The notes beneath the pieces were generated by a model. The model was not told the origin of the DNA. It made no database searches and saw only the letters and a list, made by a program, of their open reading frames with translations. A stretch of DNA of 64,000 bases from the NCBI RefSeq assembly GCF_003790525.1, contig NZ_CP033635.1. The stretch is one strand, 5' to 3'. The position numbers and the translations under genes are program-made. Each line of letters starts with the position of its first letter. Position 1 is the first letter of the stretch. Origin of the DNA: Escherichia coli (GTDB lineage Bacteria; Pseudomonadota; Gammaproteobacteria; Enterobacterales; Enterobacteriaceae). Shown piece after piece: positions 30,871 through 60,793 of the stretch.

Positions 30871-30946
<76 letters not shown>

Positions 30947-30981
30947 TTGGGTGGTCTGTGCTTTACAGCACTTTCAAATTT

Positions 30982-31057
<76 letters not shown>

Positions 31058-31178
31058 TTAATCTTCGTCTTTCGAACTGCTACTACCTTGGCTGCCTTCA
31101 CTCACCTTAGTCACTTACTTTTGTAAGCTCCCAAGGATTCGTTCAGTTGCCGCCTTGTCGCAATTCGAAATACTGCGA
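31058..31178 (-). other. 121-bp extra spacer segment inside the tRNA-Gly array, with weak tRNA-Gly-like blocks (possible decayed tRNA copy or small insertion)
   Basis: Spacer between second and third tRNA-Gly is 157 nt versus 35 nt for the other; the conserved 36-nt trailer repeat is present at 31179..31214, so 31058..31178 is extra; contains GCCAAGGT and AGTTCGA in tRNA order. Confidence 0.4.
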
Positions 31179-31214
31179 TTGGGTGGTCTGTGCTTTGCAG
31201 CACTTTTCAAATTT

Positions 31215-31290
<76 letters not shown>

Positions 31291-31500
31291 GTACTACTTA
31301 ATTTTGCTTTCGTAATTTTCGCATTTCTGCGTCGTTACGGGAGGCGCATTATACGAGAAATCTTTCCCTCTGCAACCCCCCTAAAAAATTTTTTTTGAGT
31401 TTTTATCTCAAGTGCTGAAATTATCGGCAAGACGTTCAATTTAGCGTCAAAATCACGCCACCGCAAGTGGATTACGGCGCTTACGTGACCAGGAAAAAAT

Positions 31501-46786: not shown

Positions 46787-46804
46787 ATCAGGCTCCGGAG
46801 AATT

Positions 46805-46850
46805 GGGGCCGTCCCCGGTGAAAAGAGGCGTTTGCAGGTCGTCCTGCAAA
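46805..46850 (-). ncRNA. guanidine-II (mini-ykkC) riboswitch in the gdx leader
   Basis: On the minus strand: two short hairpins with ACGR loops, gcagg-ACGA-cctgc and gggg-ACGG-cccc, about 20-65 nt upstream of the gdx ATG. Confidence 0.7.
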
Positions 46851-60717: not shown

Positions 60718-60793
60718 GCCCGGATAGCTCAGTCGGTAGAGCAGGGGATTGAAAATCCCCGTGTCCTTGGTTCGATTCCGAGTCCGGGCACCA
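60718..60793 (+). tRNA. pheU: tRNA-Phe (anticodon GAA)
   Basis: GCCCGGATAGCTCAGTCGGTAGAGCAGGGGATTGAAAATCCCCGTGTCCTTGGTTCGATTCCGAGTCCGGGCACCA; pheU rather than pheV because of the yjdC/dsbD context. Confidence 0.96.

Follow-up and report, generated by a model that had tools for sequence, protein, structure and literature searches.

ERIC repeats have been fingerprinting targets for decades, and their biology is poorly understood; to our knowledge, their mobility has never been directly shown. Members of the ERIC/IRU family are imperfect palindromes of about 127 bp that resemble MITEs (transposable elements of the miniature inverted-repeat type), with terminal inverted repeats, TA termini and a target duplication, and their transcripts form long stem-loops (PMC2229807, PMC3184786). 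Differences in ERIC content between E. coli strains are already known, with 14 extra elements reported outside K-12 (cited in PMC10969869). We analyzed a 64,000-nucleotide stretch of the E. coli contig NZ_CP033635.1 (the window), in which the spacer between the first two genes of a tRNA-Gly(GCC) array carries an additional 121 bp. Judged by sequence similarity, this segment is an imperfect palindrome of the ERIC/IRU family. It very probably belongs to a distinct, old sub-lineage of that family which abuts tRNA-Gly(GCC) genes, and forms a co-transcribed, conserved and polymorphic structured RNA spacer.

The locus is the orn-glyVXY-queG region of E. coli. All three tRNA-Gly(GCC) genes lie on the minus strand and have one identical 76-nt sequence, and the spacers between them measure 157 and 35 nt, as the original prediction, made from the letters of the window, had read them. 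When the window was aligned with K-12 C600, a single clean gap of exactly 121 bp appeared and the remainder was near identical; the K-12 spacers are 36 and 35 nt long, so both the size of the extra segment and the even K-12 spacing given in the prediction were right. The prediction had also placed a conserved trailer of about 36 nt after each tRNA, and this holds for copies 1 and 2 but not for copy 3, which is followed by unrelated sequence. The empty site in K-12 reads ...GACCACCC|AAGCGGG..., and since AA stands on both flanks of the insert, its boundary is uncertain by 2 nt (31058-31178 or 31060-31180). Over 701 nt the window locus is 100% identical to that of strain 2014C-3075. The array, in the direction of transcription, is laid out as follows.

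31215..31290, minus strand: tRNA-Gly(GCC) copy 1, in the glyV position (ARAGORN; Rfam tRNA model, 69.1 bits, as for the other two copies).
31179..31214, minus strand: 36-nt trailer/spacer, the same as K-12 spacer 1 and ending in the AA that is repeated beyond the insert (K-12 alignment).
About 31190-31203, minus strand: small predicted hairpin GUGCU-GCAA-AGCAC within the 36-nt trailer (fold).
31058..31180, minus strand: ERIC/IRU-family element of the tRNA-Gly-linked lineage, AATCGCAG...GAAGATTAA, 123 nt (alignment, fold).
30982..31057, minus strand: tRNA-Gly(GCC) copy 2 (ARAGORN; Rfam).
30947..30981, minus strand: 35-nt spacer without the element, whose end ...CACCCAA resembles the empty K-12 site (sequence, K-12 alignment).
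30871..30946, minus strand: tRNA-Gly(GCC) copy 3 (ARAGORN; Rfam).

The insert aligns over its full length with four E. coli ERIC copies, those between puuR and puuC, queA and acpH, yeiL and psuT, and metE and metR. Against a dispersed ERIC copy, the local alignment score was 79, compared with 15.8±2.4 in shuffles (0/1000). The center of the insert agrees with the ERIC2 primer at 19/22 positions and with ERIC1R, read as its reverse complement, at 16/22 (primer sequences from PMC11040821). A BLAST search of 5,426 complete E. coli genomes located relatives of the insert at 8 places in the median genome, with about 70-80% identity, and the examples listed fall in unannotated stretches; no further copy was found inside the 64-kb window. 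The insert resembles an ERIC in size (121 bp net), palindromic form, core homology (about 70% identity) and transcribed non-coding position. Its termini are AATC...GATTAA, whereas dispersed E. coli ERIC copies end TATAC...GTATA; the empty site CCCAA|GCGGG is without TA, and the sole flanking repeat is AA.

A neighbor-joining tree set the tRNA-linked copies apart as a clade from seven dispersed ERICs, which came from Escherichia and Citrobacter. Copies in the tRNA-linked clade share a mean identity of 0.844, the dispersed ERICs share 0.718, and the two groups share 0.654 with each other. The window copy is 98.7% identical to that of Escherichia sp. MOD1-EC7003, 96.9% to that of E. whittamii and about 93% to those of Citrobacter and Yokenella, but about 70% identical to the dispersed ERICs of E. 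coli. E. coli genomes that carry this sub-lineage have one copy each, seen only beside tRNA-Gly in loci that were selected for that feature.

We then considered the segment as RNA. The 157-nt spacer folds at -50.7 kcal/mol (z = -4.84), with 0/200 shuffles as stable; for the element by itself the fold energy is -43.4 kcal/mol. The predicted structure is a long imperfect hairpin that runs right up to the 5′ end of the following tRNA. Its main parts are the following.

31160..31170, minus strand: left arm of the outer stem, UUUCGAAUUGC, predicted to pair with 31070-31080 and retained in internally deleted variants of other species.
31113..31128, minus strand: apical stem-loop GCUUAC-AAAA-GUAAGU, the ERIC core and ERIC1R/ERIC2 primer region, invariant across 40 cross-species copies.
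31070..31080, minus strand: right arm of the outer stem, GCAGUUCGAAA, which holds the AGTTCGA motif that had earlier been likened to a T-arm.
31058..31069, minus strand: conserved 3′ tail GACGAAGAUUAA next to tRNA +1, where AG|AUU would fit the RNase E consensus RN|WUU.

The pairs of this hairpin are kept across species. RNAalifold, applied to 40 distinct copies, gave 33 pairs, and at 16 of these both partners have changed in a compensatory way. Standard pairs occupy 97.0% of cells; the figure is 87.6% for shuffles and 25-42% if the partners are displaced by 1-3 columns, and cells with double changes number 142 against 38.6 expected. Five covariation measures were computed, and 0/500 shuffles reached the observed value on any of them. 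Since cells count sequences and not events, we made a parsimony count, which returned at least 35 (all-column tree) to 40 (unpaired-column tree) independent switches from one Watson-Crick pair to another. The residues of the unpaired tail and internal loop are invariant among the compared copies. At 21 orthologous loci, the mean identity to the window is 0.84 for the element and 0.58 for the four-fold degenerate sites of orn. On this comparative modeling, the element is a conserved structured RNA, with pairs kept by compensatory changes and conservation above the neutral rate, and purifying selection preserves its hairpin and tail across the range from Escherichia to Pantoea.

The strand on which the pairs are kept is informative as well. 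Read in the sense of the tRNA, the alignment has G·U in 119 cells, spread over 18 pair positions, and A·C in 7 cells, spread over 6, counts that shared ancestry inflates. The sense fold averages -41.0 kcal/mol and the antisense fold -28.1 kcal/mol, the sense strand being the more stable in 40/40 copies. This G·U strand bias points to a constraint on the transcript made with the tRNA and not on a DNA cruciform.

To follow the lineage across genera, we scanned one genome per species for an ERIC core lying 55-75 nt upstream of a tRNA-Gly 5′ end. The pattern was the exact GAGCTTAC core, which misses the GAACTTAC allele common in E. coli; because it required the element, the 38 contigs from about 30 species that it returned do not establish prevalence or exclusivity to tRNA-Gly. 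Nearly all copies stand at the 65-nt offset from tRNA-Gly seen in the window, and each ends ...GACGAAGATTA(A/T)|GCGGG. The carriers, bacteria of the gut and of plants, include Citrobacter, Klebsiella, Kluyvera, Leclercia, Yokenella, Trabulsiella, Buttiauxella, Silvania, Pluralibacter, Superficieibacter, Pantoea and other Escherichia. Among 101 tRNA-Gly(GCC) 5′ flanks in the collected sequences, 42 have the full element, 10 an internally deleted form that retains the outer stem and tail, and 49 none. Of the full copies, 29 occupy internal spacers, 7 the leader of glyV-type operons and 4 the leader of Gly-Cys-Leu operons, with 2 unclear.

Several arrays in this set have unusual layouts. Mini versions of about 45-60 nt, made up of the outer stem and the GACGAAGATTA tail beside the tRNA, are found at L016:700-1300 (-), L013:5940-6100 (-) and L043:6250-6800 (-). 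C. amalonaticus has two mini-element spacers and a full copy in the leader. Seven tRNA-Gly copies and three elements are present on a contig named Enterobacter ludwigii EnVs2 (L019:640-1900), and L023 and L040:1-460 each have two tandem elements, one of them partial, ahead of a single tRNA-Gly. In the element tree, the records Enterobacter ludwigii EnVs2 (L019/L020) and Enterobacter cancerogenus M004 (L030/L031) cluster with Pantoea, and their Orn is 87-88% identical to that of the window, like Pantoea; since element and Orn agree in this, the record names are probably wrong.

Both MOD1-EC7003 and E. whittamii have the same 157-nt spacer after copy 1, and in MOD1-EC7003 the second spacer is likewise 35 nt long. 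The orn gene adjoins the array at 21 loci, which makes those loci orthologous; since orthologous loci are filled in relatives, filled is the older state here, and the simplest reading of the K-12 state is that the element was lost. The original prediction had suggested that the segment may be strain-specific. This stands insofar as K-12 lacks it and about 30% of E. coli carry it, and falls insofar as it is not recent and is common to other Escherichia and other genera.

Within E. coli, the filled site is present in about 1,606-1,622 of the 5,426 complete genomes (~30%), and the empty site is found in K-12 derivatives, O157:H7 and CFT073. The 157-nt spacer is thus no feature shared by K-12 and most of the species: K-12 is empty, and ~70% of strains are without the element. 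We compared ten E. coli loci over about 2.6 kb of flanking DNA, in a tree left unrooted because the outgroup L021 aligned poorly. The filled window and the empty strain JBEHAAB-19-0176 differ at 18 flank positions in ~2.6 kb, and empty K-12 differs from filled HS-C and H8 at 10-12, compared with 40-63 in unrelated E. coli pairs. Filled and empty sites are therefore mixed among flank haplotypes, which rules out a single-event origin of the polymorphism and means that the state has changed more than once or that recombination through the identical tRNA flanks moves it. L021 (Escherichia sp. MOD1-EC7003) itself differs from E. coli at about 35% of flank columns though its orn is 96.7% identical, and one of its array flanks is probably rearranged or non-homologous.

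Some Escherichia alleles have lost pairs. The E. coli strains 12867, H8 and HS-C (L050, L051 and L052) share an allele that alters the core at element positions 53 and 66. In this HS-type allele GAGCTTAC has become GAACTTAC and GTAAGT has become GTATGT; the latter change breaks a pair, and the predicted stability goes from -43.7 to -39.3 kcal/mol. The E. whittamii element has two pair-breaking changes.

Is the element transcribed with the tRNAs? The K-12 glyVXY precursor has been transcribed in vitro and is cleaved efficiently by RNase E (Kime et al. 2014, PMC3985628). Both primers of that study match the window and bracket 31340-30837, which puts the element within that precursor. A consensus scan found no promoter-like or terminator-like site within the element. 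When the 504-nt precursor is folded in silico, the element retains 40/40 of its own pairs at a mean probability of 0.88, with one outside pair. The suggestion in the original prediction that extra sequence here could matter as RNA is reasonable, since the segment sits inside a co-transcribed tRNA operon. Upstream of the array, a block TCTCGTATAATGCGC is kept in other genera and is the basis for one further feature, which the consensus promoter scan did not flag.

31348..31375, minus strand: putative operon promoter, TTGCAG, 16 nt, TATAAT, then GC-rich GCGCCTCCC.

The tail is the part of the element that could be a processing site. It reads AAGATTA(A/T) in 37/42 full copies and 6/10 deleted forms, and 2 more deleted forms have AAGAATAT. 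The in vivo consensus for RNase E is RN|WUU (PMC5222698), and AG|AUUA in the tail fits it. We propose that the element would be transcribed together with the tRNAs, forming a structured spacer inside their precursor; that RNase E would cut the A/U-rich single-stranded stretches flanking it, in the AAAUUUGAAAA trailer and the AG|AUUAA tail; that RNase P would trim the downstream tRNA at +1; and that the hairpin would be freed as a by-product of tRNA maturation. The empty state most likely arises by precise loss, through recombination between near-identical repeat units or a hairpin-promoted deletion between the flanking AA, and filled and empty states are probably swapped by homologous recombination through the identical tRNA flanks. 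A role as a folding insulator, which we also considered, is unsupported: predicted cloverleaf probabilities are equal, though such predictions are poor for tandem identical tRNAs.

Most likely, on these models, the element is a co-transcribed structured spacer that is removed in tRNA maturation. As for its persistence, what selection maintains would most likely be either a modest influence on how the downstream tRNA-Gly is processed or how much of it is made, or something that the freed hairpin itself does. In its broadest form, this would mean that an ERIC-derived hairpin has been domesticated as a 5′-flanking RNA module of tRNA-Gly(GCC) in Enterobacteriaceae and Erwiniaceae, kept for tRNA-Gly maturation or yield or, by analogy with leuZ-3′ETS, for the activity of a stable excised RNA of ~120-155 nt; we offer this tentatively, as a possible if doubtful account. 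A function of the released hairpin in trans would be pure conjecture by the same analogy. If domestication is true, E. coli strains with and without the element should differ measurably in tRNA-Gly supply or in their small-RNA network.

Several points weigh against reading the segment as an ERIC-derived RNA spacer under selection, in addition to the ancestry behind the G·U counts and the design of the cross-species scan described above. The insert has neither the TATAC...GTATA ends of a canonical ERIC nor a TA duplication. The short motif by which the tail fits the RNase E consensus is degenerate, and the tail GAUU is weakly paired with the 5′ AAUC in the minimum-energy fold. The roles of RNase E and RNase P at the element are drawn by analogy with K-12 glyVXY, which is empty, and with Yersinia ERICs. 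Cloverleaf pair probabilities are 0.22-0.26 with the element and 0.19-0.28 without it, which is no gain. The element is dispensable in E. coli, as the ~70% of strains without it attest, and the pair-breaking core changes in HS-type alleles and in E. whittamii suggest relaxed constraint in Escherichia. Finally, DNA-level processes could in principle keep a palindrome symmetric, although the G·U asymmetry argues otherwise.

An improbable rival is that the element is a selfish ERIC-type MITE inserting precisely at -1 of tRNA-Gly(GCC). Its conservation would then reflect the needs of mobilization instead of a host function, and the polymorphism in E. coli both gain and loss. The family is indeed regarded as MITEs; yet the best non-gly matches to the element in E. 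coli genomes have 60-90% identity, and no second copy of at least 90% identity exists in any of the 5,426 genomes, so the element is not part of a recent burst. Its right end stands exactly at tRNA +1, and its left edge is sharp in three upstream contexts, the inter-tRNA spacer, the glyV-type leader and the Gly-Cys-Leu leader. This makes simple duplication of a unit no explanation and leaves as possible alternatives a site-specific insertion at tRNA-Gly -1 or repeated precise deletion of the hairpin from an all-filled ancestor. A 2-bp AA repeat flanks the insert as well, but as a target duplication it is ambiguous, and there are neither a TA duplication nor TATAC ends. We know of no transposase for ERIC, which also counts against this rival. 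The distribution is patchy among species and strains and tandem and duplicated copies exist, as a mobile element would have it, whereas the tree of copies broadly tracks taxonomy and the loci are orthologous, as vertical descent predicts. The strand-specific G·U bias argues for constraint at the RNA level.

It is very unlikely that the element is a neutral relic, an ancient ERIC insertion shuffled without selection by unequal crossing-over and gene conversion in the tRNA-Gly array. Array turnover itself is indicated by the variation between species in the position of the element (between copies 1 and 2, between copies 2 and 3, or in the leader) and in its copy number, and the dispensability of the element in E. 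coli and the pair-breaking changes in some Escherichia alleles agree with a relic. Conservation of 84%, where the four-fold sites of the adjacent gene reach 58%, does not; nor do at least 35 independent compensatory switches with 97% of cells paired, the invariant residues of the unpaired tail and internal loop, or the outer stem and tail that deleted variants have retained.

The decayed fourth tRNA-Gly copy of the original prediction can be dismissed as next to impossible: GCCAAGGT and then AGTTCGA are present in the order of the tRNA, as it had stated, but their starts are 14 nt apart instead of 19; ARAGORN finds no tRNA in the insert, and the Rfam tRNA model none in 31050-31195 even at E<=10, nor is there a tRNA-like match at that threshold; similarity to tRNA-Gly is at chance (local score 18 against 13.8±2.1 in dinucleotide shuffles, 58/1000 of them as good); and the entire segment is collinear with ERIC copies. 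Among 40 related copies, GCCAAGGT occurs in one, that of the window, and AGTTCGA in two. The usual forms at these places are GCCAACGC...GCTTGAA/GTTCGAA, the latter varying together with the opposite arm of the hairpin. The resemblance to a tRNA thus comes from a handful of point changes of recent date.

Other identities were examined for the array. A match to YrlA (Y RNA-like) at 30894-31032 (-), covering portions of two neighboring tRNA-Gly genes, scores 40.3 bits against a gathering threshold of 69; this artefact arises because the YrlA model contains a tRNA-like module and here meets two adjacent tRNAs. The spacer has no credible coding potential: sense open reading frames are just 30-38 aa long, and antisense ones run across the tRNA genes.

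Two features lie elsewhere in the window. A guanidine-II (mini-ykkC) riboswitch aptamer is found at 46804-46850 (-) (Rfam RF01068, 50.4 bits against a gathering threshold of 32). The tRNA-Phe at 60718-60793 (+) is the pheU site. In the strain with the 100%-identical locus, this tRNA-Phe is adjoined only by a 160-bp integrase pseudogene and then cadC/cadB, and in CFT073 the same tRNA-Phe is the site of a pap-fimbrial island whose integrase is intact.

The tRNA-linked sub-lineage departs from the textbook picture of ERICs, since it is tied to one tRNA gene and inherited across at least two bacterial families, with a fold kept by dozens of compensatory changes. This is among the clearest comparative evidence for RNA-level constraint on an ERIC-type hairpin. 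About 30% of E. coli with the element and 70% without it, sometimes on almost identical flanking DNA, make a natural experiment, and they allow a direct test of what an ERIC hairpin does in transcripts, in a tRNA operon for which K-12 work on RNase E processing already exists. The K-12 reference under-represents the glyVXY structure of the species, and the spacer should be annotated as an ERIC-family repeat and not as a tRNA pseudogene. Our literature search found no link between ERIC and glyV or tRNA-Gly; the primary ERIC papers were outside that search, and a prior description is possible. The ERIC catalogue of Wilson and Sharp from 2006 reportedly drew on the E. coli genomes K-12, O157:H7 and CFT073, and a glyV-linked site was probably not in it, since all three have empty sites. 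A tRNA-Gly-linked sub-lineage with its own termini, its vertical inheritance through Enterobacteriaceae and Erwiniaceae, and its strong strand-specific covariation appear to be undescribed.

Among described systems, the closest are the ERIC/IRU/RU-1 repeats themselves (Sharples & Lloyd 1990; Hulton et al. 1991; as reported in PMC2229807 and PMC3184786). The element shares with them an imperfect palindrome of ~120-127 bp with a long stem-loop transcript, the central core that contains the ERIC1R/ERIC2 primer region, a collinear full-length alignment with E. coli ERICs, a transcribed intergenic position and presence/absence differences among E. coli strains. It differs in forming a separate clade with ~65-70% identity to dispersed ERICs, in ending AATC...GATTA(A/T) rather than TATAC...GTATA without a TA duplication, in not being dispersed, each copy seen adjoining the 5′ end of a tRNA-Gly(GCC), and in its apparently vertical inheritance across genera.

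The sole Rfam match to the element is RF02818, V_AS5 (Vibrio RNA AS5). Both are long hairpins, and they match end to end (model 1-129, window 31061-31182 (-)); at 16.8 bits against a gathering threshold of 96, the element is not a member of that family and is at most a distant relative. ERIC-like repeats have been reported in Vibrionaceae (PMC10969869), and the Vibrio family may be a distant relative of ERIC.

For behavior in a transcript, the nearest parallel is that of Yersinia ERICs, which affect the RNase E-mediated stability of co-transcribed mRNAs (De Gregorio et al. 2005, as summarized in PMC2229807 and PMC10969869). In both cases a hairpin is co-transcribed, RNA behavior depends on orientation, and the 3′ arm or tail of the element holds a candidate RNase E site. 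The host transcript is an mRNA there and a tRNA precursor without ribosomes here. A second parallel is leuZ-3′ETS, a small RNA sponge excised by RNase E (Lalaouna et al. 2015, as summarized in PMC5222698 and PMC7154689), which is likewise a non-tRNA part of a polycistronic tRNA transcript; the element, too, would be cut out as the tRNAs mature. Some Pantoea-group genomes carry the element in the leader of the Gly-Cys-Leu operon, the source of leuZ-3′ETS in E. coli. Compared with leuZ-3′ETS as described in these summaries, the element is an internal or 5′ spacer and not a 3′ trailer, is far more structured, and has no known partner RNA or Hfq binding. Finally, Rickettsia palindromic elements, found in tmRNA and M1 RNA genes, and the Correia/NEMIS hairpins of Neisseria, which are cut by RNase III (PMC2229807, PMC10969869), are also MITE-like hairpins in a stable-RNA unit, presumably removed or tolerated. 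They belong to other repeat families in other hosts, and the element of the glyVXY array, in contrast, lies between mature RNAs and not inside one.

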